Shown here: one piece after another, positions 1,590 through 59,220 of the stretch
Position numbering within the stretch: position 1 is the first letter of the stretch
Layout of the letters: the number at the start of each line of letters is the position of its first letter
From: Cenococcum geophilum
Lineage: Eukaryota
Direction: 5' to 3'
Length of the DNA stretch: 64,000 nucleotides
Assembly: GCA_050273025.1 (NCBI GenBank)
Contig: CP158635.1
Location: 4,774,001 to 4,838,000, forward strand
Notes under the pieces: model-generated
Told to the model about the DNA's origin: nothing
The model's input: the letters and a program-made list of their open reading frames with translations, nothing else
Database searches by the model: none
Translations under genes and position numbers: made by a program

Positions 1590-1837
1590 TGTTCGTACTA
1601 ACTTAATAGCACGAGTGAGTCGTATCCACGGGCACGAAATACATGTAGTATTGTATGCTTGTTTGGATGGTGACTATCAATTATATAAAGCAGACTACGT
1701 GGTCTATATACTGATGCACCTCCCCCCTAATTAGTTAGTGCTTTATAAGTGCACCAGACGCGTAAGCAAGTGGTTAGTGCACTAAACGCGTAAACGCGTA
1801 AGCACGCGTTTGGTACAACAGGTGCTGTAATTATATA
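1590..1837 (-). repeat. Copia 3' LTR
   Basis: Direct repeat of 7710-7957; the differences I could see are all C/T or G/A transitions. Confidence 0.95.
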
Positions 1838-2349
1838 CTAGCAGTACTTAAAAAATAAAACCACCTGTGTACAGCCTCCGTAATTGCTTTAATAAAACCA
1901 TAGAACATAAAGGAAAATACATAGAAAATCTCCCCTAAGGTGCCGTCTAGGCTGCCTTTTAAACGGTACCTTAAGCTAGCCGTAAGTCCTGCTTACGGTC
2001 CGTAAAATAAACCGTATGGCCTTTTAATAGATAGTAAGTCAGATTTTAAGGGCCGCTAAGGCGCTAGTGCTAAGCGAGCTAATGGCGATTTTCCATGCCC
2101 GGTATGGAAAATCGTAATTAGTTAATTTAACCACTGTGGCAGAATATAGCAGAATTCGGCAGGTCATGTGAGTCCACTAAGTTCTATTATAGCTTTCTAC
2201 CGTTTTTCTACCTAATAGCTTACGGTCCGTAGAATAGGCCGTATAATAAGCCATACGGCCTTCTAACGGGCCGTAGGCGTACTATAGGTACTCCGTTAGT
2301 CCCGTTCTACCCATTTTATAACTTTTAAGTTAAGCTTATTTGTGTTAAT

Positions 2350-7270: not shown

Positions 7271-7709
7271 ATATAGTGTAGTATAGTACGCAGTGGGTGG
7301 AAGAGGTCTTATAGTGGTCCATAAAGGCGGTTAATGTCTATAGCGGTTTGTAGAAGGGTAAGGGTGTCCGTAAGGGGTCTTAACAGGTCTATAGTAGTTT
7401 GTAGAGGGGTAAAGGGTCTTTGTAAGGGGTCTAAAAAGACGTCGGAGGTATTAAAAGAGGGTGTAGTAGGGATAGGGGTTTAAGGTTTAAGGGTAGGGGG
7501 TTCCGTACAGGTCTGTATTTGCGTCTATTATACTTTTAGTAAACCGTACTAAGACTTAAATAAGTATATAGAGTTGGAGATAAGTCCGTAATCCCTAACT
7601 TCCGACCTTCTAGTAGGTTGTACTAGGAGTCTAAACAGGTAGTTGCTGTTAAGTATTGCTTGGGGGGAGGTATCGAGTAATTGCTAATCTATGCGCGCTT
7701 ACTGATTAG

Positions 7710-7957
7710 TGTTCGTACTAACTTAATAGCACAAGTAAGTTGTATCTACGGGCACGAAATATATGTAGTATTATATGCTTATTTAGATGGTGACTGTCGA
7801 TTATATAAAGCAGACTACGTGGTCTATATACTAATGCACCTCCCCCCTAATTAGTTAGTGCTTTATAAGTGCACCAGACGCGTAAGTAAGTGGTTAGTGC
7901 ACTAAACGCGTAAACGCGTAAGCACGCGTTTAGTATAATAGGTGCTGTAATTATATA
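7710..7957 (-). repeat. Copia 5' LTR
   Basis: Direct repeat of 1590-1837. Confidence 0.95.
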
Positions 7958-8195
7958 AGGACCTTTAATATAATAAATAGACTTATTCCCTAAAGCTAAC
8001 TATACCTTATATTTAAAACTCTATAAACCTAGTATATACCCTAAAGCGCAATCCGTCTTTAAAACTAAAAGGCCTTATATATAACCCTATAGACCTTAAT
8101 ACTACTTAATTCTATATACCTTTAAGAACTAATAAATAAAAAATATAAGCCGTAAATAGAGAATGCTTTAAATATAGTAAAAAGGGATATATTTA

Positions 8196-9214
8196 GTAGT
8201 AGTAACTCTTTAATTAACGTCTAATACGGATCCTACTGGCCCACGCAGACTACTCCGTCGCAGGGGGGAAAACTTGTAATTTACATGAAGAAAACCCTGC
8301 AGTTGGGGGAGGAAAAACCCTATAAGCCACCTTAGTAGGATAAAAAACCCCGTTTTGCTATATTTGTCCATAGCGGCGGCCCTACAGGCCTACAACTACG
8401 TCCTAACCTCCTTAAATGTTTAAACTCCTTGGGAACCACTGCTTCCTTCTCTAGCTTATCCCAGCTAGGGTTTACTACATCCCAGCTAGGCCTTGCTAAT
8501 TAATTGCTGTACTATTGTTTCCCATATCTTGGCTATCCCCTATATGCTATCTCTTGTTTAACCATTGCTATATATACTATGCCTCCCCCCCCCTAGGGCC
8601 TATTGAAGGCGTAAGGGGGATTTATCTATTTTAACTACCTAATACTAAAGGCGAGCGGAATATATACGCGTGTACTCTGGGTATCTTTTGTGCCTAGGCC
8701 CTGGTTGCTAGGCCCTCTCTAAGGGTTACCACTCCGTTAAGAGGAGATAAGGAAAACCGTAGGTTGTAATCCGGGCTGCTAGGCAGTAGGTAGTAAAACG
8801 GCGAGTGACCGCATGCTCCGCGGGCGATCGCCCTAGGGGTTAGGAGGGGCCGTATATTTGCTCGTTGCTCGTTTGCAGTTACTCGTTCATTAATATAAGA
8901 GGTTATTAATGCTTTCTGTTGGGGGTCGGGGGATGCTATCAAATGCTATGCATCCATGTTGGATCGTACAGGTGCCTTAATAGGAGGATAGTGTAGTAGC
9001 CGCTATCGTACGGGGTACCAACGGTGGTGGTTTTCGAGATCTCACCATCCTATGTGAAAACTTTTTTTACTACCGCCCATAATACTCGCAACCACCACCA
9101 CTATGTCGTATCGCACGCTGTGCGACGTCTCTGCGTTGGCTCTGGGTCTGAACTTCGAAGACTTAGGTTCGTAGCCGTCACCACGTATAGGTGCAGAGTC
9201 CGTTTTCGACGGCC
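8196..9214 (-). mobile_element. About 1-kb non-autonomous non-LTR (SINE-like) retroelement
   Basis: 14-bp TSD AAGGGATATATTTA at 8182-8195 and 9215-9228, splitting the Gypsy B gag Zn knuckle. Short (TAC)n tail. Its 3' ~100 nt resemble the LINE B 3' end (GGAGTAGTCYGC...GGATCCG..T.A.ACGTTAA). No credible coding capacity. Confidence 0.88.
9129..9214 (-). ncRNA. Degenerate HDV-like ribozyme fold at the 5' end of the SINE-like element
   Basis: P1 GGCCGUC/GACGGCU (G1-U wobble), P2 CUCUGC/GCAGAG, P3 ACC/GGU, 7-nt L3 UAUACGU, P4 remnant, J4/2 GCCAAC (one extra nt). P1.1 is restored only by reversing a RIP-type change. Confidence 0.6.
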
Positions 9215-10489
9215 AAGGGATATATTTAAAGAAATTACTAAACTTACCCTTTTTAAAATAACTAACGTAGTTCCTCTTAGTCCTTAAATTATACTTATTT
9301 TATAAATTATACTTAGTCGCTATAAAGTATTTTACCTTTAATTAATTTAGAAAATAAATTATACTAGGGCTAAGTTGCGCCTTAAGATAAAAAGTAGAAG
9401 AGTATAAGTATCTAAGCTCTTTTAGCGCTAATATATAAGACAACTCCCTTAATATACTTAGTAAAATTTAAATACTTAAAAAATAGAAGAAAGTATAAAC
9501 CTTATAGATAGCGGAGCTACTAATATAGGCTTTATTAATACGAACTATGTAAAAACTTAACGCTTAAATTTAAAGAAATTTAATAAGCCTTAAGACCTAT
9601 AAGGCTTTAATAGTAAGCCTTTAATATATAGTAAACTAATATACTACGCTCTTATAAAGATGTAGATAGGTAAATATCTTAAATATATTTCCCTATTTAT
9701 AATACCCTTAAAGCATTATAAGATAATACTTAAATATAGATAGCTAGAATAACACAACCCTTTAATTAGCTGGGTTAAAGAAATACTAAAATTCCGTATA
9801 ACCTACTGCCGAAATTATTACTTAAAATACTACTTGCCCTACAAATATATATATAACTATTTAAATTTAATATAATATAAATTGCCCTTACTATAAACCT
9901 TAAACCAATATAATAAAGTTATAACTACTAATTGTGGTAAAGAATGTAAAGATAATATATTAAACCCCCTTAAAATTTATATAATATAAGCCGCACCCTT
10001 TTATTTATTAGTAAGAAAATAAGACTATAAGATCTTTATTATAACACTAGAAGATATTAAGAAGGTATTAAAATTAAAGTAATATATTAACCTCTAACCT
10101 CTTATACCTAATAAATAATAATAATTATTTATTGCTTAACGTTTGATTCGGATCCCTATTGGGCCTATGCGGACTACTCCTTATATATATATAGGGAGAA
10201 AACTCTATTTAAGAAAACCCCGTAATCTATCTCCCTACCTTTTAGGACTCGCCTATAAGGCGCCTATAGGGCGCCTACGAGTTACCTATAGTGCTTCTAC
10301 TACCTTACTTTTTAACCTCCTTAGGAACTACTACTGCCGTAACAAGCCTACGGATGCGCTAGTATTGTATACTTTACTCTACTACTATACAGTTATTAGG
10401 GGGCGCCCGTTGCTCGCCCCCCCACCCTCTATTACTATTTCCCTAGCAACCCAGAACTAGTTTAGTATATTTTAGCTAATAAGCCACTA

Positions 10490-13400
10490 GGTAACCGCCT
10501 TAAGGCCTTTTTATATTAAGAGCAGTATATTATAGTTCTCTGTGCCAGCTACTAAGAGTATTACTTCTTAGTTGGTGCGTAAGGGGCATAACAGTATTAC
10601 GTGTTTTGGTGTCTGTCTTGGCCAGCTATATTTGCATCTTAGGCTACCTACTAGGACACCTACCTAGTAGAGCTAGTCTTTTAGTCCTATTATTCCTGTT
10701 CTTAAGAGTGTTGCCATTATATTTTCTACCTTCGTTAGGCCTTCTCGGAGCCCTAAAGTATTTACCCCCTATAGCATTAACTATACTACAGCTTAGGTTT
10801 CTCTTGCCTTAGTCAGCCTCTATACCTTTAACTCCTATACGCCTCTCCAGCGTTGGTCCAACTAGTATTATATTACAGTAGATGGTTTCCTAACGTTCTT
10901 TTATGCTCTACTTTAGCTCCTTTCTCTCTCTTACTATTATCTTTACTGGCCTCTTACGCGTCTCCCTTTCTTCTTTATATAGGCCTAGGCCCTAAAGCAG
11001 CACTATTTTTCTTCTGCTTTTTTTACTTGTTTCTCTAATATGTCTTCCCTACTTTAGGGTTGTTAGTTTATTCTCCTACGGGGCGCCCTAGGGTCCCTCT
11101 ATAGTTTATTTAGGCGTGTCTTAATATACTTTATAACATTAGAGTTGCGTTTATTTTGCGCCCTTTATATTATAGCGGCTTTAATATATAGTTATAGGGG
11201 GGGAATATTGGCTTCCTTCTCGAGCAGTGCTGTGGCCGTTCGCTTATATACGCCTATTATACTCCAAAAGTAGGCTATTTAGACCTTTTAGAGTGGTTTA
11301 AGGAGCGACTTAGGGGGGCCTTTCTTAGATTCTCTAATGGCCCAAATACTGGACCTATACGTTATGGTTAGCCGGACAACTGCTATATATAGTAAGCGTG
11401 ACCTTTAAAAGCATAGACCCTATATAGAATTAACGATCCTAGATAATACAATGTACTATACTTAGCCCTTACGGGCCGCTTACGCCGCATATACGCTCTA
11501 CTAGAGCTTACTGTCTACCTATACTTCTAATACCCTTAGGCCCTAAACTGGTTAACCCCTAAAGCTTTAGATATAAATTATATACTAAAAATCTACAGAT
11601 TGGTTACGTTTTCTTATAAAATAGATTAGCTAGTATTTCTCTAGTAAGAATTAGACTTTATATCGTCTTGCCTATTCTATATAGGTATTATAAGCTTTCT
11701 CTAGTATTCTATAATTCTTTACGGCTGTTAGCCCGTATATAATTAGGGTTATATTATTAATAAAGCCTATTCCCTGGGTTACCCCTTTCTTAAAGAAGTT
11801 AAGTAGGTTGCTTATAAAGAAAAGGAAGAGTATAGGCGAGAGGGGTAATTTTTATGGTATTCCTGTTGCAACTGTAATAGGGGGGCTCTGGTATCCGCTG
11901 AAAACTAATAATATTTCTTTTTAACCTGTAAACCCTTAAATAAATTATATAATCTATTCTGGGAAGCCTTTTACCCTAAGGATATATAGGAGACGCTCGT
12001 AGGGTACGTTATTATAGGCGCCACTAATATCTAGGCTGAGTATTAATACTATAAAGTCCCTTCGCATCGCCTATGCGGATTTAATGGTGGCAGCGAGTAG
12101 CGTAAGTGCTAATAGTGTTAAGCGGTTCTTTCTTACCCCTATTTGGCTCTATAGTAGTAGGGCATGTTCCTTAGCCGTGTCTGCTATATAGTCCGCTATT
12201 ACCTTTTCTAAGATCTTACTTAGGGTGTTTTCTAAGGTAATAGGGCGGTAGCTTCCTGGGATTAAGTAATCTGCTTTACCTTCTTTTTATAGAATAACCG
12301 TCGTTATAGATCTTCTGAGTCGCGGGTAGTAGCCTATAGTAAAGCATGCTCTGGCTATATTTATAAGCTAAGGTGCTATAAATGGTCTATAGGTCTTTAA
12401 GGCCTTATTTAGAATCCTATCTAGTCCTAGTACTATATTATTTAAAAGGCGGCTAATAGTTCTGGCTATTTCCTCTGTTATTATGTCGCTGTTAACCCGC
12501 AGGCGAGTTACTAGTATTTCACCCGTAATGTCACTAAGGTCTGCTAGAGCCGGTTAGGGGAAGAACCTTTTTATAAGGATCTTTGCCTTTTTATCGTTAT
12601 TGTTAGTAGCCTATAATTCCCCTGCTCTTCGTAGGGGTAATAGGTATAGGTCTTCTGCTAGTCGCCCTACCTTTTTCTTTACCTATTTTATTATAGCCCA
12701 CAGGCCCTTATTATAGGGGAGGCTTAAATTAAAAGTGTACTTATTTATAAATCGTCTCTAGTTGTTCCTTACTTTTTTTTTTTAGGGTATTCTTTAACTG
12801 GTTTCTTATGTCTTTATATCGTCTCTTATCTTTAGGGTTGTGGCTACTTAAGTATTTCCTTCTTGCTTGTTATTGGCTAGCTATAAGAACCGCGTATTAT
12901 ACGGACCATATATATCGCACGTAGGGGCCCGGTTTTAAGACTGGGTAGTACTCTTCTAACCCGTTTTTAATCGCTACCTAGATCCTTTCTAGTCTTCGGT
13001 TGATTTCCTTAGGGGTAGCTAATAAGCCTCGCTTGTTTGGTATTGGGTAGATTTCTTCTAGGTTTTAGAGTTGTTGTTTAACTATATTAAGGAAGCTGTC
13101 TGCCTTAAGCATCCTTATTGCGTATCTTTTGCTATTTAGTTGCGCCTTAATGTCTAAATCTAGCTGTATCTAGATAGGGATATAGTCTAAAGTAAGTGCC
13201 TATTCTTCTTCGGGGTTGCACCTTTTAAGTCTCTAGTATAGGCCTTCGTCTATAAATATAAGGTTAATTATACTTCTAGCGGATCCTTATTGCCATATAA
13301 TTGCTCTAGGGGGGGTGGCTAGCTTAAGGCCCCAGGTGTTTATGGCTTTTAGTAGGCACTCTGCCTATTATTTAGCAGCGACGTGGATACCCCCCTACCG

Positions 13401-13830
13401 TAGGTAGTGGAGGTTTATATCTTCTAATAGGATAAACTCTATGCCTTTGGTTTTAAGTAAGCTTATTACCGATATAATATTCTTTATTTGTGGGACCCCT
13501 TTAACCCTAGGGTTATATATATTAATGATTTATACCGGTCCTCTATATGTCTGGATTATTATAACTGTAATATCTGGATTAACTGCCTGCTATAACTATA
13601 AGGATAGGCTAATAGTCTTACTAATTATAAAGCATACGCGTGTAGCTGCTTTTGGTTTGTATAGGAGCTGGAATCCTCAGGGGCAGTATGTTAATTATAT
13701 ATAGGTGTTATAGTACGGCTCTTGTATAGTAAGGATATGGTGTTTCTCTAGGTCTAGGCTGTCTAGTAGGGGCCTTATAAGACGGTGGTTTGTGTTGCTA
13801 TAGTTATACTATATAATGGATAGGTAGCGG
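10490..13830 (-). pseudogene. LINE B ORF2: APE endonuclease, reverse transcriptase, C-terminal CCHC
   Basis: (G)D(M)NLH(H) near 13410, YRPITLENTLSKILEK near 12205-12250, GIP(QG)(S)PLSPILFLFF near 11820-11865, F(VDD) near 11755, QTPKHVILLCP near 10585-10617. Confidence 0.85.
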
Positions 13831-13839
13831 ACCCCCAGT

Positions 13840-15200
13840 GAGGGTCCTTCGCCTCTTTATTATTTCTCGCTTCTTTTATTTTCACTTTCTCTAGGATATT
13901 TAGAACTTTTATCTCTTGTATCTACACCCTGGTTACTACTTATTTTATATAGAGCTTTTTATTCCCATGTTTTATGTTCCTACTAGCGCTTCTATATCTA
14001 AATCTGTTATTGTCTTTAGTTTTTCCCCTGTTCTTACTGGTTGGCTATACGCCCTTTAAGAGTCGGCTGTAAATATTATATTTACCGCGTTAAGTCTAAT
14101 TCTTAATTGTCCTGGTCTTAAGCTTGCTATAGCTGTCTATAAGGGTCTTCCTATAGGGTGTTCTCTTCCTTATGTCCCCTATAATCCTTATGTCCCTATA
14201 CGGTTTAGTAATGTCGCGCGGCGTCGCTTCTGGCCCGTTAAGGCTTAGGATGGCTGGCCTAGCCCCCTAGTATTAAAGGTAGGAAACGATAGAAAGGTAC
14301 CTGCGCTCCCCTGGCTTATCGCCTGTTATTTCCATTTATATAACCTCGCGTGCAGTTATTCCCGTAGCTATTAAGCCCTTACCTTCTATCTCCTGTATTT
14401 AATGTAGTCTTCTCTTTTCTACGCCTTATATGTGCTTTGGTGGCAGTTTACGTATTTTATTTAGTCTTAATTTAAGTAGTGTCTTATATTGTGGGGGCCT
14501 ATATAGTGGCCGCAGCACACCTGTACTGCGTATATAGATTAGGTATATCCCTATTATACGCAGCAATAGTATTATTCTAGACATAGTCTATAGTTATAGA
14601 GCCTTATATTATATATAAGGCCGTTTATAATTATTCCTTTTTAGATAAGGAGTTTTTACATTTTTGGTATATATGTGCTAATAATAAGGGAGCCATACGT
14701 TTGTCCGGCGTCTCCCTAGTAGGTCTTTAGTAACCCTTATATCCTCTTATTATTCTTATTGTTTACTTAGTTTACATTTTCCTATTAAAGCTATTAGATT
14801 TGGGTAATCTTAAGTCCTAGTATAAGGCGTTTCGTTTATCTTACTATCTCTTATATAATTACTGTGTTGTCCGCCTAGCGTCCCTTTTCTACCCTAAGGC
14901 TTATAGGGACCGCTAGGACTTTAACTGGGTAATCCTCGCGGAGTACTTTTATGCTAATACGTTCTCCTAGCCTATTTCCTGCCCTTATGGCTCGTTTCTT
15001 TGCCTATTAGTCCTTTAGGGTAACTCTAATGTCTCCGCTCCTAAGGTGTCGGACCGTAATAGCGTTATAGACCTCTTTGCGGATTTTTATAAGGACTTCT
15101 ATTTCTAATTATCCCCTAAGCCCCTCTGCTTTTTCTGTGTTTGGTTGTATTGTAATTATATACCCGGTTGTTGTTTTAAGGGGGGTAAGTTCTCTATGCT
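13840..15200 (-). pseudogene. LINE B ORF1 (gag-like), degraded
   Basis: Lies upstream of ORF2, with Cys/His knuckle remnants near 14500-14600. Ends approximate. Confidence 0.55.
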
Positions 15201-16981
15201 ATAGAAGCGCAGCTACGGCGGCCTAGGTGCGGTTCGCCGGTAAAGGGGGGTTTTATTTGTTTTTAATTTTGCTTAGCTGTTAGAGGTAGGTAGTTATATA
15301 GTAGAGTTTAACGTGCCTACTTATCTAGGCCTCTACCCTAGTTTTTTAGTATTTATTCTAATACCTAGGCCCAAAGGCCTAGGGGCTTTCTATAAGTAGT
15401 TGGCTGCTACCACCTTAATAGGGGGTCTCACCAGTTCTTTTGGATATCTTATAATAGGATTAGCCTAAGCACTAGTCCGCCCCCCCGCGGTCTATATAAG
15501 AGTCTCCTTCTAAAGTTAGTACGCTTTCGCACGGCTTGGGAGCCTTCTATAGCCTCTAGTTTTACACCTTTTCTATTATTTCCGCTAGTATAGGCATAAG
15601 CTGCCTTTTCTAGGGGTCGCAACTCCCGTCTTATGTGCCTATTGGCGTAATCCTATAAAGATATTATAGCTGCATCCTGTAATATAGAAGCCTTAGGTAC
15701 CTTCTATAGTTAAGGCCTAGACCAAAAAGCCTCCCCTACCTAAGTAACTCCTATTTACTTCTTAAGCATATTTTATTAGCGTACCGCCCTAGAAGCGAAT
15801 AAACGGTTCCGTCTGTTAATATACCGACACGTGTATCCGTTCTCTTAAGCTATATAGTAGTCTTCTCCGGCTAGGACGTAATCCTACCTGCCTATTAAGT
15901 ATACTAGGGGTTAGAGCCTAGCTAAAGGGTAAGGTCCTTAGAGCCAGCAGTAGCTACTACGTACTTCACCCTATAGAAGACTAGCAGTAATATAGGGGCG
16001 CAACACCCTATATACCACTAGCTCCCGTTTTATAATACCTATAAAAGTTTCCTTATAATAGGCCGACCGTGTCTTGTAGAAGGGGTTTATAAATACTAGG
16101 TCCCGCGCCAGGCAACCTGCTCTACCCTCTCCTACTAACTAAGCTTATGTCCCCCCTTTTTATAAGACTGTTAAGTCCTCGTCCAACTAGCCTATATTTC
16201 CCCTATAGCCTCCCCTATATATATATATATTAGGTTACGTGCACTACGCCTATTAAGACCCTTCTATAAGTCGCCTTAGACGTATATATATTAGGTTGCA
16301 TATACTACGCCTATTAAGACCCTCCTATAAGTTACCTGTAAGTCGCCTGTAAGTTACCTACGAGTTAAACGCCATAGGGCCGTCGAAGCTGGCCTATATT
16401 TCCGCTGCCTAGAGCTTTACCCGTATTTCCACCTCATTAAGCCGTTTAGTTGCCGTCGCGTCACTATTACGTCGCTGTCAACCAGGTCGCGCGCACCACG
16501 CCTATTAAGACCCTCTTCTAAGTCACCTAGGTGTACCGGTATACTAGATAGGCCCTTAGAGGGGCCTTAATGAGTTCTTTAGGCAGGGCCTTAATAAGTT
16601 TCGTATAAGGTATCTATAACGCGTTAATTAACAAGTTCTTATAAAAAAGGGTTCCCTACGCCCTTGCCATATCTATTTGGTCTTAGAGCTAGTATAAGCC
16701 TAAGGGTGTCCTATTGTACGCCTAGGACGCGTCCGCATCCGCTAGCTTAATAAGGCTAGTTTCGGCCCTAGCTATAAGCTAAGTAGACGTACATTAGGTG
16801 GTTTTTATATCCTAGTTTCCCTTAATAGGCCTCCCTAGATGGTAGAATAGGAGCTCTAAGCGGAGGCAGTAAGGCTCCTAGTGTTATTAAGGGCGATGCT
16901 TTAAACGCGTCGCCGGCTCAACACCACAGAGTCACAACGACAGCGCGCTGCACGCGCTGCGACGGCTCTCTACTATTACCT

Positions 16982-17066
16982 CTGCACTTGGCTATCAAAA
17001 GGAACGGATTCTAGATGATGTTTCCACCCGCGGCGACGTGGACGCGTGTAGTAGGGCTTCGCGGGC
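16982..17066 (-). ncRNA. HDV-like ribozyme at the 5' end of LINE B (RIP-damaged P2/P4)
   Basis: Reverse complement reads GCCCGCG-AAGCCCTA-CTACAC-GCG-TCCACGT-CGC-CGCGGGT-GG-AAA-P4-GCCAA-GTGCAG. G1 abuts the TSD. Confidence 0.85.
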
Positions 17067-17079
17067 TACCTAATAAATA

Positions 17080-21563: not shown

Positions 21564-22246
21564 AAAAACTTTTACCGCATATGCAACCTTACCAAAAGAT
21601 GGCGCCGCACTTCAAAACTTACGCATACCCATCTTCCTATCAAAAACAATTGATTTTCAGACTCTTAAGACCTAATTCCAACTGCCTAGCAAGCTAGAGG
21701 CGGATTCATTTGCCTTTTTACCCCCTTTTTACTTAAGAGAAAATTCTCTTAAGGGGTGGTCCTAGCTTGTAAACAAGGCAGGGGTAGGAATACCAAAATA
21801 TCAAAATATAGACTTTTCCTAGGTTTTTCTTCTATAAAAAGTAAAAGCCTAATAAAATAGGAGGTGTAGGTATTTTTCTATATCTCCTTTAGTCAGATTT
21901 TCTTTAGTAAGAGAAGGATTGCCTTTTCGGACTTTTCTGCTAGTAAAAGCCTAACAAGTCCTTTTTTTAGTGGTTTTTTCTACTTCTAATAGAGAAGAAA
22001 ATAACTACTACAGTCTTTTTACCCAGTTTTTCTACTACCTTTTAGTCTAATTTCCCTAGAAGCTCTCTAGTAGGGTTAGTAAGGAAAAAGGATATAGAAG
22101 GATAGTAAAAACTAGGAAGGCTTTTTACCTAGTTTTTTACCTCTATACTAGGAGATAAGAGAACTAAGGAGGTTATTATCTACTGCAAAAACTAGGAACC
22201 CCCCCTATAAGCTATAAGCTATAAGCTATAAGCTATAAGACATAAA

Positions 22247-23728
22247 ATGCTAAAGGTAAAGGCTATTAAGCCTAAAATAAAGCCTCCTATAGAGATAAGC
22301 GATGACGAATTCTTATCTACCTCTTCTACTTGTTCTTCTCTATCTTCCCTATGCCTATCTAGGAAAGATAAAGAAGTAGAAGAAGTAGATAAGCCGTCTC
22401 TAGCTTATATAAAGAACCAAAGAAAAAGAAGCCACCCCCTATCGTCTTCTGGAAAAGATAGCTAAAATCTAAAAAGAAACCTACCAAAAATAAGGCCCTC
22501 TAGGGCTAGTTTATACTTTTCCCCTCCTTCTTTAAAACAATTCCTATAAAAGGCCTTAGAAAACCTAACCTAGGCCTATCTAAGGCTAGAAGGAGAAAGT
22601 AAGGAACAAGTTAAATATATTAAGGACGACGTATAAAGAATTATAGTAAGAGAAAATCCTTCTATAAAAGAAACAGAAAAGGAAAAACAGGAGATAGATA
22701 TCCTAAAAGGACTAGTAGAAGAAGTAAGAGCCCTCCGCAAGGAGGTAGCCCCTAAAACCTATATAGAAAAGTTAAAGAAGGGCCTCTCTTCTTCTACTTA
22801 CTCTTCTTTATCGTCGTCTCCTCCTTCCTCTACTACCTCTCCTTCTTCTTCTTTACCCCCTACCTCCTTAATTCCCCCTACTAGTAAGGTAACTAGTAGC
22901 ACTACCAGTTCTACAAGCCCTCCCTCTACTAGAGGGAAAAAGAAGCAGCTATAAGAAAGAGGATTAGTCCTAGTTATAGACTAAAAGGACTAGCCTCTAG
23001 ATATCTTCTCTATACGAAATACAATTAATTAATAATTTATGTCTAAATTGCAAATAGAGAAGCTAGTTATAGCTTCTATAGCTAGAACTAGAGAAAAGTA
23101 GAATATTCTCCTTATAATAACGGAGGAATATAATGCAGATTTTCTAGTTAAATATAAAGAAGTCTGGTCTAGCTGCTTCTCCTTTAAAAGAGAATAAAAA
23201 CTAGAGCCCTAGGCTTAAATAGTAGCTTATAGCGTCCCTATCCCCCCTTTCCTAGAAGAAGGAGGCTCTAAACTTCTACAGGAAGAAATAGAGACCTTTA
23301 ATCCTATTAGGATATAGGGACAACCTAAATAGATCTCTTCTAGGGCAAAAAGATATGATCCACAAACTAGGTTCGGCTCTATAGTGTTTGCTATAAAAAA
23401 TGAGGAAAAAAGATAGGAAATCCTTAAATAGAAGGAAATCCTAATTGTAGGGGTAGCTACTAAGGTAGTTAAATACCTAGAAGTCTCTCCTACTATATAG
23501 TATACAAGCTGCCAAAAATTTAGCTATATAGGAGATAGATACTCTATAAGGGCCTGTTAGTTTTGTGTAGTAGTACACCTATCTAAAGACCACTCCTGTT
23601 CGAGTTGTAATATAATAGGTAAGCCTTATAAATATACTACCCCTCTTTATATTAATTGTAAAGAAAAACACTTTACTACCAGTAAAGACTGCTAGTCTCT
23701 TAAAGCAGCTAAGTTAATATACCAATGA
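22247..23728 (+). pseudogene. LINE A ORF1 (gag-like, CCHC knuckles)
   Basis: ATG at 22247 is in frame with TGA at 23726-23728. (Q)(C)TSCQKF(G)(H) and further knuckles near 23498-23690. Confidence 0.85.
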
Positions 23729-24577: not shown

Positions 24578-25029
24578 TATTACGGACGCTTTAGGTACAA
24601 TGTTACGACTACTTAGAGAAGAGTTAGAAGAAGCTAGTTGGTTAATTTAAGCACGGTTTAGGATAGAGCCGATAGAGCTATGTAATAAGGAATAGTAGCC
24701 GAGGTTATATAATGTGATCTATATAATCTATAATAGAGTAGGTAGAGCATACGTATATTATATATAAGGAGGATTTTATAGGAGTACGGTTATGTATTTA
24801 AGGACCCTTAGTCCCTACCTAGATAGTTCCTTCCTTATAGTAATTCTTAGAATATAATTAGAGTTAATCTATTAGGCAACTACTCTACTAGTTATTATTA
24901 TATTGTTAACTTTAACTTACTTTACCTATATACCTAGCCTATTAACGAGCCCACTATAGTTTTTACTACAAAGTTCCGTTATATAATTACTACCTAGTTA
25001 CAGTAATAAGTATAAAAAGTTAAATAATA

Positions 25030-28000
25030 TGCTACTAAAAGCAGCCACTATAACGCTATTAACGGCGGCAACTACTTTAAGGTTAGGAGGTAATACTAGT
25101 ATAGCGGATACTAACTTTTAATAACCTATAATGGTTAGATAGTTATAAGAGATAGTTAACTAGTTAATAATAAACAATGCGGCGCTAGAAGAAAGGGTTA
25201 ATAGGATAGAAGCGGTAAAGATTAAGTTACTATTAATTAAGAGATACTTAGGAGAAAGATTAAAGCTTAAGGGATTTCTTACGTAAATGTACTTTAAGGT
25301 AATATAAGAAGGAGCGAAGCTGCTAATACCTATAGATTGAATAGCCTATATAGGACTATTCCTATTAGGAAGGGCACTTAAATAGTTTAAGCTTTACCTT
25401 ATAGAAATACAGGCAAATAGAATAATAACTACTAATTAAGAGGTACGGTTTATGTTCTTAAGCTAGGAAGGGTTTATAGAGCGATTTATATAAATATTTA
25501 GAGACCTAAAGGTAGTAACTATAGCAGAAAGAAAACTCTAAGACATTATATAGCGAATATTAGCAATTAAGTATATAACGCAGTTCCAGATATTAGTAAT
25601 ATAAGTTAAGTAAAATAATAAGGCGCTTATGGTATAGTATAAGTAAGGACTTAAGGCTAAAGTCTAGGATATAATTATTCTAATAGAAGATGCGGACACC
25701 CTATAGGATTTAATAGATTAAGCAATTAAGATTAATAATTAGATCTACTAAAGGGAACAGGCTAAGAGAGGTTAAGATAGAGTTCTATAGTTATATAAGG
25801 CGTAGAGTACGCATTAACTAAAGCTAAGTTAGAAACTATAGTATGGCGCAAAGCTAATGGACCTAAGTAGTACTAAAGAAGCCTATAAGAGATAGAGTAA
25901 GAAACTATAAATACCTAGAGGTTAAGGATCTAGTAATTATAAAACTAAGGAGTAGAGGCTAAACTAAGGATCTTAGTAGTAGAAGATATTTAGGCGGACT
26001 CTATAGTAAAGTTAATAGTTTAAAGATAAAGCTTATATAAATTATAGAAAATAAGGTTACTTTGTAAGGGATTATAAAGATAGTTAGAGTTATTATGCAA
26101 TAAAGGGAACCAGATTAGCAGAAGACATATATATATAAAGGGATAATAGTATACTGCGAGGAATAAAAGAATATTTAATTAGAAGTTTTACGTTTTATTA
26201 TAATAATATATACCAAATTTATAAAGACGCTAAGTATGGCGTAAGCTATTAGCTATAAAAGCTATACTTAGCAGAGTATAAAGGAACTAATAAACCAGTT
26301 TGTAGATTAAATATTAAGGACGATAAATTTAACGTAGGCGAAATATTCTATAATAATAAGGCAATGAGAGCGGCTTACTAGGAGCATATAGACCTTAAAG
26401 ATGTTATAATAGAGGTAGAGGATAATTCTACTACAAAATAGGGAATATTAGTAGAGATTAAGACCCCACTAGATATAATATCTATTGCTTTATAAAATGT
26501 AAAAGAAGTAGAGTAGCAAACTACTTTAGTATTTAATAAAGGTAAGAAGCTAAAGGCTTAAGATTCTTATAATGAGATAAGAGACAACTAAGATTTTTAA
26601 GACGAGATAAGGTAAACCTAAGGACCTATAATAGACAGCAACTAATAAAATAGGGTAGTAGCTTAGTTTAAAGATATATAAATAAGCTTAGGACAGAGTT
26701 TCCTATAGGCATAAGATTCTCAAGATAAAATAAGTGAGATTTAAAACTCTTAAAATAAGATAAGAATATTAAGTAAGCCTAGTTGGACTAAGGCTAGAGT
26801 AAAGCTTAAGTTAGAAGTAAGCTTAGGATTAAAAATCCTATAGAACTAAGACTTTAAGTAACAAATAAGGACTATTAATAAGATTAGAGAATTTGCGGTA
26901 TAAATAGCAACTAGATTAAAAGACAGATATATAGACCTAAAGGACTTACTAGGGGAATAAAGTGTTTAGCTTAAGGATCGGAATATTAATACTAAGATTA
27001 AGAAGTAAGAAGACTTTAAGGATCTACTTATAAGACGCGAAAAGAAAAAAACTATAAAGGAATTTAGAGTAAGAATTACTTTATGGCAAGAGCAGAAACT
27101 AAATAAGAGATCTAGTATATTAGGATGTATAAGGGACAGAGCGCTAGTATAAAGAATTACTAATAGGCCTAGAATAGGTATACTAAGAGCTAAGTGGCTT
27201 ACCGAACTAGAATAAGAAGAGGATTTAGGGATTTTAACTAGGTTTAAAGAACGATATATAAAGGGCTGTTATAACGTAGTAATAAGAAGATACTTCCTTA
27301 TGAACGAACTATATACACTTTAGTAGCTATACTAAAAGTGGTATAGGTAGAGGCATAATGATAAGTAGGAAGATTTCTATATATGGTTAGATGAGAAAGT
27401 TATTTAGAACTACCTAATTATAGAAAAAGTAATAAGTTATATTAAGGGAGCCTTAATTATAATATTAAAAGATCTAAAGGAGCGTTTAGAGGACTAGAGA
27501 AGTAAAAGGCGTATTTTAATACCTATAAATAAAGTTATAATGTTTAGATTAATATAATAGAGGCTTAAACTTAAGGATAAAGATAAACTAAGAGTTAACC
27601 TAAAGCACTAAGCATATTATATATTAGCGTGGATTATATATATGGATAATACGTATAATATATATAGAGCACTAAAGGATAAGTATTAAAAATACCCTAT
27701 AAGAATATATTGGTTAGCAGAAGAATAGAAGTATTAAAACGCTAAGTATATATATAGCTAGCATCTAGTAGAAGTTTAGGAGTTAGGTAACTTAATATTT
27801 TAACTAAGAAAATTCCTTATAGAAGAATACCTAGATGGATAATAGTGGTGGAAATGCCTAGAGAATATATGTCTATAGTATATTAAGGATAAAAAGCGAA
27901 TTAAGTATTGGCTAAAGGTGGACTAAGTATAAATAAGATTAAGTAGCTAATAGTTAGGAAAAGTAGAGGCCTATAGGACTAGAGGGAGCTAGTAGTAAAG

Positions 28001-31345: not shown

Positions 31346-31960
31346 AAGAATAAGTCACCTAAGGGGGACCTAAGAAGAGTAGTTGCTAAACTACTTAGAT
31401 TTATTTCCTTCTTAGCTAAAAGAGAATCTATTCTCTTATTACTAAGTTCCTATAAACCCTATTTTATAAGTTTCTACTCCTTAAAATAGACCTTCTTATA
31501 AACCTTCTTAAGACGGTTTAACCGAGTAGACGCCGTAAGATAAGACTTAAGGGCCCGTTGCTAAGTATTAGTAGCCTCCTATTTAGCGTCCTAGGAACGG
31601 CGTAACTCCGCTAAAGTAATAGATAGTTTATTATTTAGCTGTGTAGTAATAGATTAAATATAAAACCTTAAGCTAAATTAATTAGGGAACTAGACGACTA
31701 TTTAGAGTAATAGGTTATATATACTTAGTATTAGAAATAGAGCAAACGTTATAGGACGGATAAATATTTACTTTAGTGCACTTTAAATAAGAGGACGGTT
31801 ATTACAAAGATGGGTTCGCTAACGTAATATAAACTAACCCCTCTTTTAAATAGCGAGAACATAGAGATAGTATAATCTTACTAAAAGACAATATCGCAGT
31901 AATAGTGCGAATGCGACGAGCAGTTAAAGATAAAGAAATTACTTTAGGTATAATAAGTAA
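31340..31960 (-). pseudogene. Antisense accessory gene of Gypsy A: Zn2Cys6-like motif plus probable coiled coil
   Basis: De-RIPed reading gives C-x2-C-x6-C-x13-C-x2-C-x8-C near 31750-31865. A second copy lies near 75-190. Confidence 0.6.
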
Positions 31961-52733: not shown

Positions 52734-53013
52734 TTAAAAAAACACAACATAGGCTAGTCGGTCGAGTTGCCAAATGCCCTTAACTGCGCGCCAATTGCGT
52801 CAACCACTAACTATTAAGGCCATTAGTAGGGTACTATATTTTGCCGATATACTCTATTTCCTAAACCCCCTTCTTCTACTAGCTCTATAGAGTAGAAGAA
52901 CTATATTATAGATAGTAAATAGGAATAGCTAGAACTAAAGAAGATGGAGGTTAAATAAGTAATCTTCTCTAGCTCTAATAAAAAAGCTCTAGGGCTAAAT
53001 AAGCTATCCTTTA

Positions 53014-53098
53014 GCCCGCGAAGCCCTACTGCACGCGTCCACGTCGCCGCGGGTGGAAACATCATCAGGAATCAATTCCTTTTGATGGCCAAGTGCAG
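53014..53098 (+). ncRNA. HDV-like self-cleaving ribozyme, intact fold
   Basis: P1 53014-20/53048-54, P2 53029-34/53093-98, P3 53035-37/53045-47, L3 UCCACGU, P1.1 CC/GG (53055-56), P4 53060-87, J4/2 GCCAA. Confidence 0.9.
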
Positions 53099-54865
53099 AG
53101 GCGATGGTAGAGAGCCGCCGCAGCGCGTGCAGCGCGCTGTCGTCGCGGTTCTGTGGTGTTGAGCTCGCGACGCGTACGATGTATCGTACAAAGCTTCGCA
53201 CAAAGCATCGCCCTCAACAACACCAGGAGCCTTACTGCCTCCGCTTGAGGCTCCTGCTCTACCACCTAGGGAGGCCTATCAAGGGAAACTGGGATACGAA
53301 AACCACCCGATGTACGACTACCTGGCTCGTAGCCAGGCCCGAAACTGGCCTTATTAGCCAGTCGACGTGGACGCGTCCTAGGCGTACGACAGGACACCCT
53401 TGGGCTTGCACTAGCTCTGAGACCGTAGGGACACGGCGAGGGCGTAGGGAACCTCTTTTTATAAGAACTTGTTAAGGTTAACGCGTCGCAGATACCTCGT
53501 ACGAAACTTGTTAAGGCCCCAAGGCCACCGCGAAGAACTTGTTAAGGCCCCTGCCTAGAGAACTCGTTAAGGCCCCTCTACGAGGGCCTATCTGGTATCC
53601 GGTACTCCCAGGTGACTCAAAAGAGGGTCTTAATAGGCGTGGTGCGCGCGACCTGGACGCGACAGCGACGCGATAGCGACGCGACGGCGACCAGACGGCT
53701 CGACGAGGTGGAAACACGGGCAAAGCTCTAGGCAGCGGAAACACAGGCCAGCTTCGACGGCCCCATGGCGACCAGGTGACTCACAGGAGGGTCTTAATAG
53801 GCGTGGTGCACGCAACCTGCGCATATACATATGGGGGAGGCTCTAAGGAAACACAGGCCAGTCGTACGAGGTCTCAACAGTTAGAGACACAGGCCAGCTT
53901 ATAAAAAGGGGGGACACAAGCTTGGTTAGTAGGAGAGGGCAGAGCAGGTCGCCTGGCGCGGGACCGAGCATCTACGACCCCTCCTGCAAGACACGGTCGG
54001 CCTGTCATAAGGAGACTCTTACAGGCAACGCGAAACGGAGACTAGTAGTATATAGGGTGTTGCGCCCCTATACTACTACTAGCCCCCGCGGGGCGTAGTG
54101 CGTAGTAGCCACTGCTGGCTCTAGGGACCTCACCCCTTAGCTGGGCTCTAACCCCTAGTGCACCTGGTAGGCAGGCAGGATCACGTCCTGGCCGGAGAGA
54201 CTACTACATGGCTCGAGAGAACGGATGCGCGTGTCGGTGTACCAATAGACAGGACTGCTCGCTAGGGCAGTACGCTAGTGAGGTACGCTTAAGGAGCAAA
54301 CAGGAGTTACTCAGGCGGGAGAGGTTTGGCAGGCCTTAACTGTAGAAGGTGCACCCACTCCACACTGCAGGATGCAGCCACGACGCCCTTGTAGGATTAC
54401 GCCAGTAGGCGCGTGAGACGGGAGTTGCGACCCCTGCAAATGGCAGCTTATGCCCGTGCCGGCGGAAACAATGAAGAGAGGCGTGAAACTAGAGGCTATG
54501 GAAGGCTCCTAAGCCGTGCGAAAGCGTACCAACTCTAGGAGGAAACTCTTATACAGACTGCTAGGGGGCAGACTGGTACTTGGGCTAACCCCATTATAAG
54601 ATATCCGTAAGAACTAGTGAGAATCCCTGTGCGATTGGTGGTGGCAGCTAACTGCTTGTGGCTGGGATAAAGCACTGGAAAACTGAGGTAGAGGCCTGGA
54701 TAAGCAGGCATAGTAAACTCTACTGTATTATTAGTACTACTAGTATATATAACTACCTGCCCCTTTGCTCCTCCGTCCGTCGTCGCAAGGGCGCCGCCGG
54801 TTGTATACCCCCTAAAGACACGTCACCACGACGCTAGCCACCACAACCAACGATTCCACCACAAC

Positions 54866-55462
54866 CGGTCTGCCACAGAGCAGACGACCTCCACTACAAC
54901 CAGTCTGCCGCAGGGCAGACGACCTCCTCTACAACCCGTCTGCCGCAGGGCAGACGACCTCCACTACAACCCGTCTGCCGCAGGGCAGACGACCTCCACT
55001 ACAACCAGTCTGCCGCAGGGCAGACGACCTCCACTACAACCAGTCTGCCGCAGGGCAGACGACCTCCTCTACAACCAGTCTGCCGCAGGGCAGACGACCT
55101 CCTCTACAACCCGTCTGCCGCAGGGCAGACGACCTCCACTACAACCCGTCTGCTGCAGGGCAGACGACCTCCACTACAACCCGTCTGCTGCATGGCAGAC
55201 GACCTCCACTACAACCCGTCTGCTGCAGGGCAGACGACCTCCTCTACAACCCGTCTGCTGCAGGGCAGACGACCTCCTCTACAACCCGTCTGCTGCAGGG
55301 CAGACGACCTCCTCTACAACCCGTCTGCTGCAGGGCAGACGACCTCCTCTACAACCCGTCTGCCGCAGGGCAGACGACCTCCTCTACAACCAGTCTGCTG
55401 CAGGGCAGACGACCTCCTCTATAACCAGTCTGCTGCAGAGCAGACGACCTCTACTGCAACCG
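54866..55462 (+). repeat. 35-bp minisatellite, about 17 copies, each with a stem-loop
   Basis: Unit GTCTGCC-GCAG-GGCAGAC-GACCTCCWCTACAACCM. CAGRGCAGAC recurs every 35 bp from 54876 to 55436. Confidence 0.95.
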
Positions 55463-57886
55463 GTCCACGGCTGTCGCGCTATAGGTAATTAAACTATAGA
55501 GGACCGCAGGCGTACCGCAGGCGCACCGCAGGCGTACCGCAGACGATGCACTGCTAGGGTAGCTATAGTAGGGGATAGGGGAAGGGGGCCGGCCCGTGTT
55601 ACTTTAGCACGTTAAATATAAGGTATATAGGCGAATTGGTGTTTATACCCTATACAAGACAACCTCGTGAAAATTTTCCTATGGGAGTGGGTTTACGTAA
55701 CGAGGTTCGCCCTTATAAAATACCCGTTTTCTAGAGCGTAAATCTAGGATTAGTAGGTTACTTTTGGGGAGAGTACCTACTAATTACTAATTCCCTACCC
55801 ATTTCTTTAGCAAGGAGAAGGAATAGGGTATAGAATTAAACAGTCGTATGGGGGTAATTGGTAGCTACTTTCAAGCTAGTAAGCTATATGGTTTCTCTTA
55901 TTCTTATATGCAAAACTACGTTAAAAATCTACCTTTTAGAGCGCTTTTTCTACTCTAGGAACGGCAGAATACGGCAGAAATAGATAAAAGAGCCAGGATT
56001 TTCGTGTGATTTTCTTGGTGTAAACTGGACCATAGTAAGCAAAATATCAGGACAAAACACCAATAGGCTAGGACTCCCCTAGTATTTAAAAACGGGCCGG
56101 AGTGTCCACTTAGCTACTAGTACATGTTAAGCTGCCTAGGAAGGATTCATGTATATAGAACTATAGCGCCATAGCCTAGAGGCTGCATGCGCAGTATTGT
56201 ACGTAGTATAATACAATGGATATAAAAAAAATAAAAAAAAAAGCTATCCTTTATAATCCTATAAAAGGCCTACCCTATTATAAAAGATCTTCTATATAGA
56301 ATCTATAGGATTTTATTTACCCTAGGTTATCAACTAAAAGTCTAGAAAAAGGCTTAAGGAGTTATTCTCCCTAAAGCAAATAAAGAGGACTATTCCCTAC
56401 TAAAGTCCTATAGACCTATCTCCTTACTAAACTACCTAGGAAAGACTTTAGAGAAGATCTTTATTACTAGATTAGGATATCTAGCTAGTACTACTAGCTT
56501 ACTTTAAGACTTATAACTAGGAGGAAGAAGATAGCGGTCCGTAATAGACGTAGTTTTACTACTCCTAAATAATATCTAGTTTAAAAATAATAGGAAAAAA
56601 GCCAGATAAAGAATAGCTACTACGCTATTTCTAGATGTAAAAGGGGCCTTTAACCATATCTCCGTAAACTAGCTTTTATCTATCTATAAGGAACTAGGGC
56701 TATCTATAGCGTTTATGTAATAGGTAGCTACCTTCCTTAGTAATAGAAAGCTACAGCTCTACTTTAATAGACAAATATAAAAAAAGGTAGAAATAGAAAC
56801 AGGGATACTATAGGGTTCGCCTATATCTCCTATTTTATTTCTACTATATATACGCAATATCTGCAGCCTATAAACAGAAGGAGACTATTCCCTTAGCTAT
56901 ATAGACGATTTTGCAATTATGGTTACTTCGAACTTAGCTAAATCCAATTATAAAAAGCTAGAGGGAATAGCGCTAGAGCTAATATCTAGAGCTAAAGAAG
57001 TTACTATTAGTTTTAATATTAGCAAAATAGAGCTTATACACTTCTATAGTAAGCGTATTACTATATAAAAAAAAGAGCTAAAGCTAGGAGATATAGAAAT
57101 ATCCCCTAAACCCCTAGTTAGGTAGCTAGGGGTATTTCTAAACTCTAAGCTTACTTTTAAATAACACGTAAAAATTAAAATCTCTAAAGCAAAAACAGCC
57201 TTCTATTTAATTAGAAGACTAGGCAATATATAAAGAGGTCTATCTCTATAAGCTCTATAACAGCTCTATATAGCTTGCGTTACTACTATAGTAGACTATA
57301 AAATATAATGCTGGTGGAAAAGCAAATCTAGAGACTACCTATTAGCTAGGTATCAATCTCTACAAAATAAGGCCCTAAAACTAGTTTTAGGAGCGTTTAG
57401 AGGATCTCTTATACAAGCTATAGAAATTAAGGCCTCTATCCCTCCTCCTAGAATTAGATTTAAAAAGCTTTGCAATAGCTATACATTAAGAATCCTAAAA
57501 TTTAAAGAAAACCACGTAATTAAAAAGGCCTATATAAAAGAGATTAATAAGGATAGGGAGGAACTAGTAACTAGTTCTAGTTCTAGTTTTAGCCCTAAAA
57601 ACTCTACTATAAGACACCTTCTATAGCTAAAAACTTAACTACTATCTCTAGCTTCTAGAGTCCAGTAACTAATTCAAAATTGGAAAATAGAGAGAATCTC
57701 TCTAGATTGGCAAAAACCGTAGTCTCCCCCTATTTCTACATTCTTTTCTATCTCTAGGGGTAGTAAAGAAGAAGCTATACAAGAACATTTAAGACTAGTA
57801 GAAAATCTATAAGAATCCCTAGAATGGGACCTAGTAGATATATACTATATAGACGGCTCCAAAGATAGTAAATTAAGTATAGCGGC

Positions 57887-58015
57887 TGTGACGGCTGAAC
57901 CACCAGCTAAAAGGATAGTGCACGAAGAAGATCAAGATCGACTTCGCAGCTTGTAGTTTAACATATATGTACCTAAATAAGCGCCCGCAGGTCACGTGAC
58001 GTCACAACCGTCACA
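57887..58015. mobile_element. 129-bp solo LTR
   Basis: Termini TGTGACGG...CCGTCACA. 5-bp TSD GCGGC at 57882-57886 and 58016-58020. Confidence 0.9.
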
Positions 58016-59220
58016 GCGGCCGTATATAAAATAGGGAAGAGAAATAGGATTAAATACGCAATAAATTGGAATCTAGGGCCTTATATAGAAATTATAGACG
58101 TAGAACTTTATACAGTCTATAGGGCCCTAGAATATCTAAAATAATAAAGACTAGAAGAGAAACAAGTTTATATCTTTATAGATAGCCAAACAGCTATTAA
58201 AAGATTACAGCTTAATTCTCTTACAGGGGGACAAGAACTAGTCTTTAAAATTACGTAAAGCTGCTCTTATCTAGCTAGTAAGAATATCTTTATTAACTTT
58301 TATTGGGTTCCTAGCTACCTAAAAATCTACGGAAACAAAATAATAGATAAGCTAGCTAAAAAGGGCCTCTTTAGAAGAAAAATATAATCTTCTTATACAT
58401 CCCTAGCCTATATAGGGAGAGCAGCAAGAGAAAAAATACTAGGATAGTAGAAAAGCAACTAGCAACAGAAAAAAATTAAAGGACAATACTATACTAGGAT
58501 CTTTAGAGGAAACTACTCTTTATCTCTTAAAGCCCTTAAGGATAAATATCCTAAAAGGTTACAATTAGCTTTCTATTAACTAAAACTAAAAAAAGGCTTC
58601 TTTAAATCCTTCTCTAAGACAATAGGGAAGGATAAAGAAGGTAGATGCTTTAAGGACTATAGAGCTATATAGACTCCTAAGCACCTATTACTAGAATGCA
58701 GACTATATAGGGAAGAGAGAAAAGAAATGCAAAGACAACTAAGCTCTTCTCTCTCCCTAGAGAAGCTCTTTTATATAGAGAAAGGAAGAAGGGCGCTTTT
58801 CCTATTCCTAAGTAAGACAGAAATAGCTACTAGAAAGTGGCTAATAGAAGTAAAAGCTTTAGAAGGAGGTAACTCCTACTAAACTTTTAGTAAATAGATA
58901 GTAGTGAGCAAAAGGACAGAAATAAACTATAAAATGTATAGGGGCAGGCGTTAGGATTCGTTTACCGTTTCTTTTACCGTTTTTTTACTATTTTAATACT
59001 ATCTAATAGTTGTCGTAACCTAGTATTTTACTAGGGAGCGGTAAACCTCTAATCTAAAGGTTTATAAACTACTAGGATATAGCTACTAGTATATATTAAG
59101 CTGCCTAGAAAGGATTTATGTATATAGAACTATAGCGCTATAGCCTAGAGGCTGTATGCGTAGTATTGTACGTAGTACAATACAATGGATATTAAAATAT
59201 AAAAAAAATAGGCCTCTACT

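Follow-up and report, generated by a model that had tools for sequence, protein, structure and literature searches.

The MINE elements of Magnaporthe grisea are chimeras in which a full-length, 1.1-kb non-coding sequence (WEIRD) is joined to a 5'-truncated copy of the MGL LINE, the whole being flanked by TSDs of 10–20 bp (PMC2104539, Gogvadze et al. 2007). Tripartite forms also occur, the switch sites have a GCC consensus, and the available text of that report attributes the fusions to template switching by the RT (PMC2104539). A comparable arrangement is seen in mammalian U6 snRNA/L1 chimeras, in which a small RNA, present at full length and with a fixed 3' terminus, precedes a 5'-truncated L1 within a single TSD (PMC2104539). 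HDV-like ribozymes have been described at the 5' ends of a different set of elements, including R2, L1Tc/Pr77, RTE, and baggins (PMC6765202, PMC3774820, PMC3185411, PMC4035085), for which the proposed role is to free the element RNA from longer transcripts. In Drosophila, R2/R1 hybrid SIDEs carry such a ribozyme ahead of the 3' end of the other LINE (Eickbush & Eickbush 2012, PMC3414825), and a Pr77-like HDV fold in Penicillium chrysogenum is mentioned in a remark on unpublished data (PMC3185411). These descriptions of earlier work follow the portions of the reports available to us.

The window (the whole 64,000-nt stretch of DNA analysed here) is a RIP-degraded fungal repeat landscape with a GC content of 0.23–0.46, except for a block at 53–56 kb where it is 0.52–0.58, and it contains no ORFs of 150 codons or more. 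An 85-nt sequence is common to positions 16982–17066 (minus strand) and 53014–53098 (plus strand), and both copies can be fitted by hand to the HDV-like double-pseudoknot plan. Judged by its sequence, the copy at 16982–17066 is likely to be a RIP-mutated version of an HDV-like self-cleaving ribozyme motif. Each copy stands at the head of a long non-coding module that is followed by LINE sequence, and we think that these composites probably arose when a ribozyme-headed module RNA was joined to a LINE by a template jump of the RT. The coordinates of the features are collected in Table 1.

The putative ribozyme is built from five helices. P1 has 7 bp (GCCCGCG with CGCGGGU) with a G1·U closing pair, and J1/2 has 8 nt; P2 has 6 bp (CUGCAC with GUGCAG), and P3 has 3 bp (GCG with CGC) around a 7-nt L3 (UCCACGU). 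A 2-bp P1.1 is formed between the CC of L3 and the GG located directly 3' of P1, and P4 is a bipartite helix followed by a J4/2 that reads G-C-C-A-A in the element C copy at 53 kb and G-C-Y-A-A across copies. The helices form a nested double pseudoknot in the canonical order P1/P1.1/P2/P3/P4. In HDV-like ribozymes the catalytic cytosine lies in J4/2 and is followed by N-R-A, and the cleavage site is immediately 5' of G+1; the J4/2 C of the present fold we take to be the counterpart of the HDV catalytic cytosine. As the original prediction had noted, P1, P3, L3, P1.1, and J4/2 are identical in the two window copies. The changes in the 17-kb copy fall in P2 (G18>A, a RIP-type change that leaves an A·C mismatch), in P4 (G>A at two pairs), and in the loops.

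Public metagenome contigs were searched with a pattern consisting of P2'-P3-L3-P3' and GGAAAC behind P1, with the 3' strand of P1 left free, and at least 121 stretches match. Alignment columns 19–34 and 42–47 (P3, L3, and P1.1) are set by this pattern, and the invariance of these elements carries no evidential weight because the pattern itself fixed those columns. Among the matches listed, 96 distinct copies give 96.9% paired cells over the fold's 27 pairs; after a shift of the 3' partners by 1–3 columns, the figure for the same 96 copies drops to 35–54%. The closing pair of P1 at G+1 is G·U in 88 of 94 cells and A-U in 4 of 94, and all of the 96 distinct copies have the J4/2 C (alignment column 79), which is followed by C/U, A, and A, again among the matches listed.

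The alignment offers thin covariation, as it consists mostly of closely related copies that come from one or a few genomes. Five pairs are changed on both sides, a pair count reached by 17 of 500 shuffles and a covariation score reached by none of 500, and many of the compensatory changes are transitions, which are a product of RIP itself. The most telling double change is a transversion swap in P2 (U17-A to A-U) found in L032, L072, and L117. These three constitute a diverged module family in which nt 1–48 are kept at 95–97%, and in which P4 is replaced by unrelated sequence that yet forms a perfectly paired hairpin. Identity to element C is 72% over 1.1 kb for L032 and 75% over ~430 nt for L072.

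A descriptor that we wrote for the fold has a single match in the two strands of the 64-kb window, at 53014. Thirty random 64-kb sequences with the base composition of the window yielded one match (~0.03 per 64 kb), and 30 random GC-rich sequences yielded none; in the 17-kb copy, the G18>A mismatch in P2 prevents a match to the strict descriptor. Our own covariance model, applied to the window and to 50 loci, recovered no copies that were not already known, and no Rfam family matches either window copy at gathering thresholds. With relaxed thresholds, HDV-family models, which do not score pseudoknot pairs, were top or near-top on four independent copies, aligned in register and in every case sub-threshold. 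RF02682 (HDV-F-prausnitzii) scored 22.6 bits (E 0.063) at window 16980–17065 and 33.3 bits (E 0.001) on L117, against a gathering score of 44; RF01788 (drz-agam-2-2) scored 17.7 bits (E 0.025) at window 52974–53102, below 38; and RF00094 scored 27.4 bits on L085, against a gathering score of 50. Nested MFE folding, a method that cannot represent pseudoknots, gave values no better than those of shuffled sequences (z of -1.32, +1.18, and -0.06).

The two window copies start at the same base, and in both elements a 13-bp TSD directly touches G1 with zero extra bases, in agreement with the original prediction. Among the matches listed, 115 of the 118 metagenome loci with at least 20 nt of upstream sequence begin at the G1 position, 107 of them with GCCCGCG, three with ACCCGCG, and five with single transitions; the remaining three deviate in their first 2–16 nt. 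Mean pairwise identity in this set is 0.34 over the 20 nt upstream versus 0.96 over the 18 nt downstream, and two locus pairs have a common upstream flank. Independent insertion at one base, as had been proposed, is borne out by these 115 of 118 listed loci, and cleavage may be what defines that base. Shared sequence reaching upstream of G1, which the prediction had named as the evidence that would count against it, is found in none of the 115. TSDs of 12–14 bp, again adjoining G1 without an extra base, were recovered with an exact-match test in four of the 48 loci listed (L004, L010, L021, and L039). The empty site is present in DNA contigs (three of X1 and one of X6) as a joint of 53000 to 56241 at which 13 letters fit both sides.

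The view that the 17-kb copy has been damaged by RIP proves sound, as the first ~760 nt contain 89 substitutions, of which 71 are C>T or G>A toward that copy, mostly at CpA and CpG. The ribozyme region is also present in contigs of RNA libraries, a type of library that can contain DNA. Raw RNA reads of X23, which have another species label and are 90–95% alike, cover the 5' end 3–5 times with no start peak at 53014. Three metagenome sequences start close to G1 (L032 at ribozyme nt 10, L072 at nt 9, and L085 1 nt before G1), and these starts, if the sequences are RNA-derived, would be consistent with transcripts that begin at G1.

Table 1. Positions in the window of the putative ribozyme copies, the modules, the LINE sequences, and the TSDs.
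Feature	Position	Strand	Remarks
Putative HDV-like ribozyme copy, RIP-damaged	16982..17066	-	G1 = 17066; own covariance model 107 bits
Putative HDV-like ribozyme copy, intact	53014..53098	+	G1 = 53014; presumed catalytic C 53089; own covariance model 120.7 bits
Non-coding 5' module, 1782 nt	15285..17066	-	headed by the putative ribozyme; ends ...AACTACCT(G/A)CC
Un-RIPped module copy	53014..54762	+	GC 0.56; no conserved ORF
5' TSD of LINE B composite, TATTTATTAGGTA, 13 bp	17067..17079	-	adjoins G17066
3' TSD of LINE B composite, TATTTATTAGGTA	10105..10117	-	repeat of 17067-17079
LINE B body, RIP-degraded	10118..15284	-	5'-truncated by ~390 nt relative to L028, L050, L043; tblastn P0001, P0004
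LINE B ORF2 (APE + RT + Cys motif)	~10427-13943	-	RT domain ~11620-12277, RVT_1 E 4.7e-14
Element C (composite)	53014..56240	+	ends in poly(A); flanked by AAGCTATCCTTTA
Element C remainder	54763..56240	+	35-bp tandem array, further sequence, LINE A-type 3' end
Element C LINE A-type 3' end, 133 nt, poly(A)	56108-56240	+	87-91% identical to two other window copies
5' TSD of element C, AAGCTATCCTTTA, 13 bp	53001..53013	+	adjoins G53014
3' TSD of element C, AAGCTATCCTTTA	56241..56253	+	repeat of 53001-53013; empty-site joint
LINE A copy, host of the element C insertion	56254..59211	+	RT ~56244-57527, RVT_1 E 1e-19; 3' end 59211
LINE A degraded RNase H	~58034-58738	+	tblastn matches to RNase H-bearing relatives

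The stretch of about 1.8 kb that begins with the ribozyme is a separable non-coding module rather than the 5' UTR of LINE B itself. A leader of about this length had been predicted before LINE B ORF1, and the length agrees (1782 nt); the status of leader does not hold, as the stretch is joined at many positions. The module is ~1.75 kb in size, and the 17-kb copy is 76–80% identical to 53014–54728. The predicted internal repeat, CACYACGCCTATTAAGACCC, for which the chance expectation is 0.01, does occur three times in the 17-kb module (two exact copies and one with a single mismatch) and is present twice in the 53-kb copy.

At its other end the module is equally constant, and terminates in ...AACUACCUGCC. 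Among the matches listed, the end motif ...AAACTCTACTATAT(optional insert)AACTACCTGCC closes the homology in all 48 loci that extend 1900 nt or more past G1, and ...AACTACCT(G/A)CC is present at every junction examined; the tail AACTACCTGCC is kept in the diverged L032 and L072 as in the main family. A hairpin is predicted at the module 3' end, and seven of its 14 predicted pairs have a compensatory change in at least one of eight sequences. No known RNA family in Rfam matches this end. The hairpin lies at 54663–54762 in the window, at L032:1256-1355, and at L072:1302-1401, is followed by the AACUACCUGCC tail, and has the stems GUAGAG/CUCUAC, GUAAGG/CCUUAC, and GCGAAG/CUUCGC across three diverged families.

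An ORF starting from the ATG at +91 (123 codons in element C) was considered as a gene and rejected, as it spans anywhere from 12 to 154 codons among copies. At window 53104–53475, the ATG sits 2 nt past the last ribozyme pairs and is kept in most copies. A role for the ribozyme in translation start has reportedly been proposed for R2, and the variable ORF behind this ATG lends no support to such a role here. In the raw RNA reads of X23, 37 molecules end at 54760, corresponding to the last bases of the module, and 236 reads (3 + 233) contain a joint that goes back 23, from 54782 to 54760 (window 54760–54782). Both observations point either to a variant copy in the species sequenced or to a genuine RNA end.

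The sequences that follow the module were compared in loci chosen by the ribozyme core, and the junction counts cover ribozyme-bearing loci with at least 1900 nt downstream. Among the matches listed, the module end is joined to LINE B in 21 of 48 loci at 17 distinct positions, with entries at LINE B positions 2818, 3239, 3402 (two loci), 4344, 4431, 4503 (four loci), 4654, 4758, 5031, 5101, 5763, 5922, 6423, 6482, and 6563, and with near-full-length joins in L028 and L050. The same end is joined to LINE A in 10 of the 48 listed loci, at about eight or more positions. Three loci (L042, L015, and L071) have a second, 5'-truncated module after the first, followed in L071 by LINE B, and L079 and L010 are similar to element C; other bodies lie behind the module in four of the 48 listed loci, and the module is interrupted in nine. 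A circular or tandem template was considered for the module-module forms and rejected, as the inner junction is at module position 503 or 1380 and not at G1. At the LINE B junctions, the last 2–7 nt of the module (CC, GCC, or CCTGCC) fit LINE B equally well, as compared by eye with a RIP-mutated reference.

A single module-less LINE B 5' end is present in the upstream flank of L043, where it is preceded by unrelated sequence. The L028 and L050 junctions are ~30 nt apart, and all lie within ~40 nt of this LINE B 5' end. The window LINE B is joined ~390 nt further in, and is therefore a module plus a slightly 5'-truncated body. In the diverged L032, the module end leads directly (L032:1356-1420) into coding sequence for a CX2CX4HX4C zinc knuckle of the kind typical for LINE ORF1 proteins; module-LINE fusion therefore recurs in the diverged family. 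In L030 and L037, the module is followed by 81–90% matches to window 21670–22761 and 23487–23712, and these sequences may be a third kind of module partner.

The whole LINE B composite runs from 17066 to 10118 on the minus strand and ends in an A/T-rich tail. In its RT region it shares 71% identity with P0001, a protein of 1026 aa that contains APE and RT. The ORF2 of Tad1-clade LINEs contains APE, RT, and RNase H domains; RNase H is missing from LINE B, as it is from P0001, P0004, and the 33 closest relatives, and is present in more distant relatives. In a FastTree phylogeny built on a set without named reference sequences, the RNase H-less proteins and LINE B form a single clade (support 99) that is nested among fungal LINEs with RNase H, and LINE A groups on long branches with an RNase H-bearing protein. 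The predicted absence of RNase H from LINE B and its presence in LINE A thus both find support, the LINE A domain being degraded and its RNase_H profile match weak (E 0.0021, 18.7 bits, cut-off 25.8).

LINE A had also been predicted to lack the ribozyme, and none was found with our covariance model in or beside the window copy of LINE A. The general contrast with LINE B fails because LINE A bodies elsewhere carry the module. LINE B's own 5' region has no HDV match and no match to a known RNA family. Within the window LINE A, ~120 nt (57890–58013) are without counterpart in six metagenome LINE A copies that align on both sides, reflecting either a short insertion in the window copy or a deletion in the other six.

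The ~133-nt 3' end of element C, with its A-rich tail (aligned over 56111–56243), is also found at 46954–47085 and, as the 3' end of LINE A, at 59080–59211, and the 3' end at 47085 probably belongs to another LINE A-type insertion. Element C includes a 35-bp tandem array (54855–55465) of 17.5 copies that are 95% alike, which is by far the deepest-covered part in RNA libraries X7 and X23; a similar tandem array lies behind the module in L015 and L079. Elsewhere in the window, ~1–9400 (minus strand) contains a RIP-degraded Ty1/copia-like LTR retrotransposon, with gag zinc knuckle, protease, integrase, and RT in order in a stop-masked frame, and with direct repeats (1590–1837 and 7710–7957) that are 94% identical. 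A Pfam search of window 1–9500 returned no family, despite the copia-like motifs seen by eye. Other RIP-degraded repeats relate 25833–27974 to 59208–61243, and 1–811 to 31676–32483 and 24578–24983; these families are 76–87% identical, with one pair inverted and a strong GC skew.

In the composite origin that we favour, the module would be transcribed, probably within longer transcripts, and a ribozyme cut just 5' of G1 would create the 5' end of the module RNA. This RNA would have a discrete 3' end at ...AACUACCUGCC, with the conserved hairpin before it. During TPRT on a LINE RNA (LINE B here and LINE A elsewhere), the RT would leave the LINE template at a site of CC/GCC microhomology, jump to the 3' end of the module RNA, copy it, and run off at G1. 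The predicted product is a TSD-flanked composite of a full module and a 5'-truncated LINE, as which we would read both the module at 15285–17066 with its LINE B body and element C (53014–56240) with its LINE A-type 3' end.

An alternative is that the ribozyme and the 1.8 kb behind it are the 5' UTR of LINE B, and that the short forms are internal deletion derivatives like the R2 SIDEs, which originate by such deletion according to the available text (PMC3414825). The window copy and L028/L050 do have the module ahead of a complete or nearly complete LINE B, and the recurrence of junctions at LINE B 4503 (four loci) and 3402 (two loci) among the matches listed is as expected of amplifying deletion derivatives. 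However, the left boundary of these supposed deletions is always the module end among the matches listed, with the right boundary scattered over 17 positions, and a second, unrelated LINE family is joined to the same module. Deletion also sits poorly with the module-module-LINE forms, with the clustering within ~40 nt of the L028 and L050 joins (~30 nt apart) and the module-less LINE B 5' end in L043, and with the retention of the terminal motif in the diverged L032 and L072, and we regard this account as unlikely.

Internal promoters set the 5' ends of many LINEs, and G1 could mark a transcription start, with an HDV-like fold that is fortuitous or no longer catalytic. Such an explanation, which we judge quite improbable, has to accommodate a descriptor match that is rare by chance (~0.03 per 64 kb) and yet begins at the first base, a J4/2 C that is invariant in 96 of 96 listed copies although RIP mutates C, and a P2 swap and P4 replacement that preserve the fold in the diverged family. 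Run-off at a transcription start would give an equally sharp boundary, and cleavage is here deduced from a fold whose Rfam scores are sub-threshold and whose MFE z-scores are not significant; capped templates, however, frequently give rise to an additional G at the junction, and the TSDs adjoin G1 without an extra base. The same ribozyme-headed module could also be joined to LINE fragments by an RNA ligase before reverse transcription, as is said to have been proposed for U6/L1 chimeras. Ribozyme-type processing leaves 5'-OH and 2',3'-cyclic phosphate ends that are joined by RtcB-type ligases and would suit this route, and the constant module 3' end is compatible with either ligation or a template jump. 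Ligation nevertheless seems to us very improbable, as the annealing of nascent cDNA would be expected to leave the 2–7 nt overlap with terminal CC/GCC/CCTGCC, and ligation would not, and the GCC rule of MINE is taken as evidence of template switching in the available text (PMC2104539).

A template-jump origin of the composites raises a broader and more tentative reading, in which filamentous fungi harbour conserved 'retro-hitchhiker' RNAs of ~1.4–1.8 kb with a 5' HDV-like ribozyme and a 3' hairpin plus AACUACCUGCC tail. The tail would be a preferred template-jump acceptor for the RTs of several LINE families, and WEIRD of Magnaporthe would be a member of the class; taken jointly, we consider these propositions possible rather than probable. 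We know of no function reported for WEIRD since 2005. If the reading is true, dead 5'-truncated LINEs capped by the module would become transcribable and mobilisable non-autonomous elements, and the module would spread without a 3' LINE signal of its own. An active ribozyme would explain both the full-length 5' partner of the chimeras and the use of one exact end base, and would provide a testable idea for the nature of WEIRD-like RNAs. For the annotation of fungal genomes, a long 'leader' shared by LINEs can be the mobile module itself.

In the literature searched, we found no link between HDV-like LINE ribozymes and MINE/WEIRD-type chimeras, and, in the portions available, no HDV-like ribozymes in retroelements of filamentous fungi apart from the Penicillium chrysogenum remark. 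As in R2, L1Tc, RTE, and baggins, to judge from the available descriptions, the ribozyme comprises the first nucleotides of the element, with upstream sequence that varies between copies and conserved sequence downstream, and as with Pr77 it is a 5' hallmark of autonomous and non-autonomous elements alike. The R2/L1Tc-type ribozymes, however, are part of the LINE's own 5' UTR near the ORF and are known from animals and trypanosomatids in those accounts, whereas here, in a fungus, the ribozyme heads a separable 1.75-kb module and does not belong to the 5' UTR of an autonomous LINE B. The Drosophila R2/R1 SIDEs share with the present elements a ribozyme of foreign source that is mobilised by another LINE, and their foreign 5' RNAs are likewise put down to RT template jumps. 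As described in the portions we draw on, they are rare and rDNA-specific with the ribozyme immediately before the 3' end, in contrast to a long module joined at many positions genome-wide. The U6/L1 chimeras differ in their RNA partner, as U6 has a known housekeeping function and no ribozyme.

The closest likeness in form is to MINE as it is described in the available text. In both, a full-length non-coding 5' part (~1.75 kb here) is combined with variably 5'-truncated LINEs, and one TSD surrounds the whole chimera (13 bp for the window elements and 12–14 bp at four loci); the switch sites are of the GCC type, as seen in overlaps judged by eye, and tripartite forms are present (L042, L015, and L071). 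The word 'ribozyme' has 0 occurrences in the available text of the MINE report (PMC2104539), whereas the module here is headed by an HDV-like fold. The present module also differs from the MINE arrangement, as that text gives it, in being found on two LINE families and in recurring in a diverged family. Each part is known separately, and what is new, to judge from the literature searched, is the combination, in a fungus, of an HDV-like 5' ribozyme with a MINE/WEIRD-type chimera.
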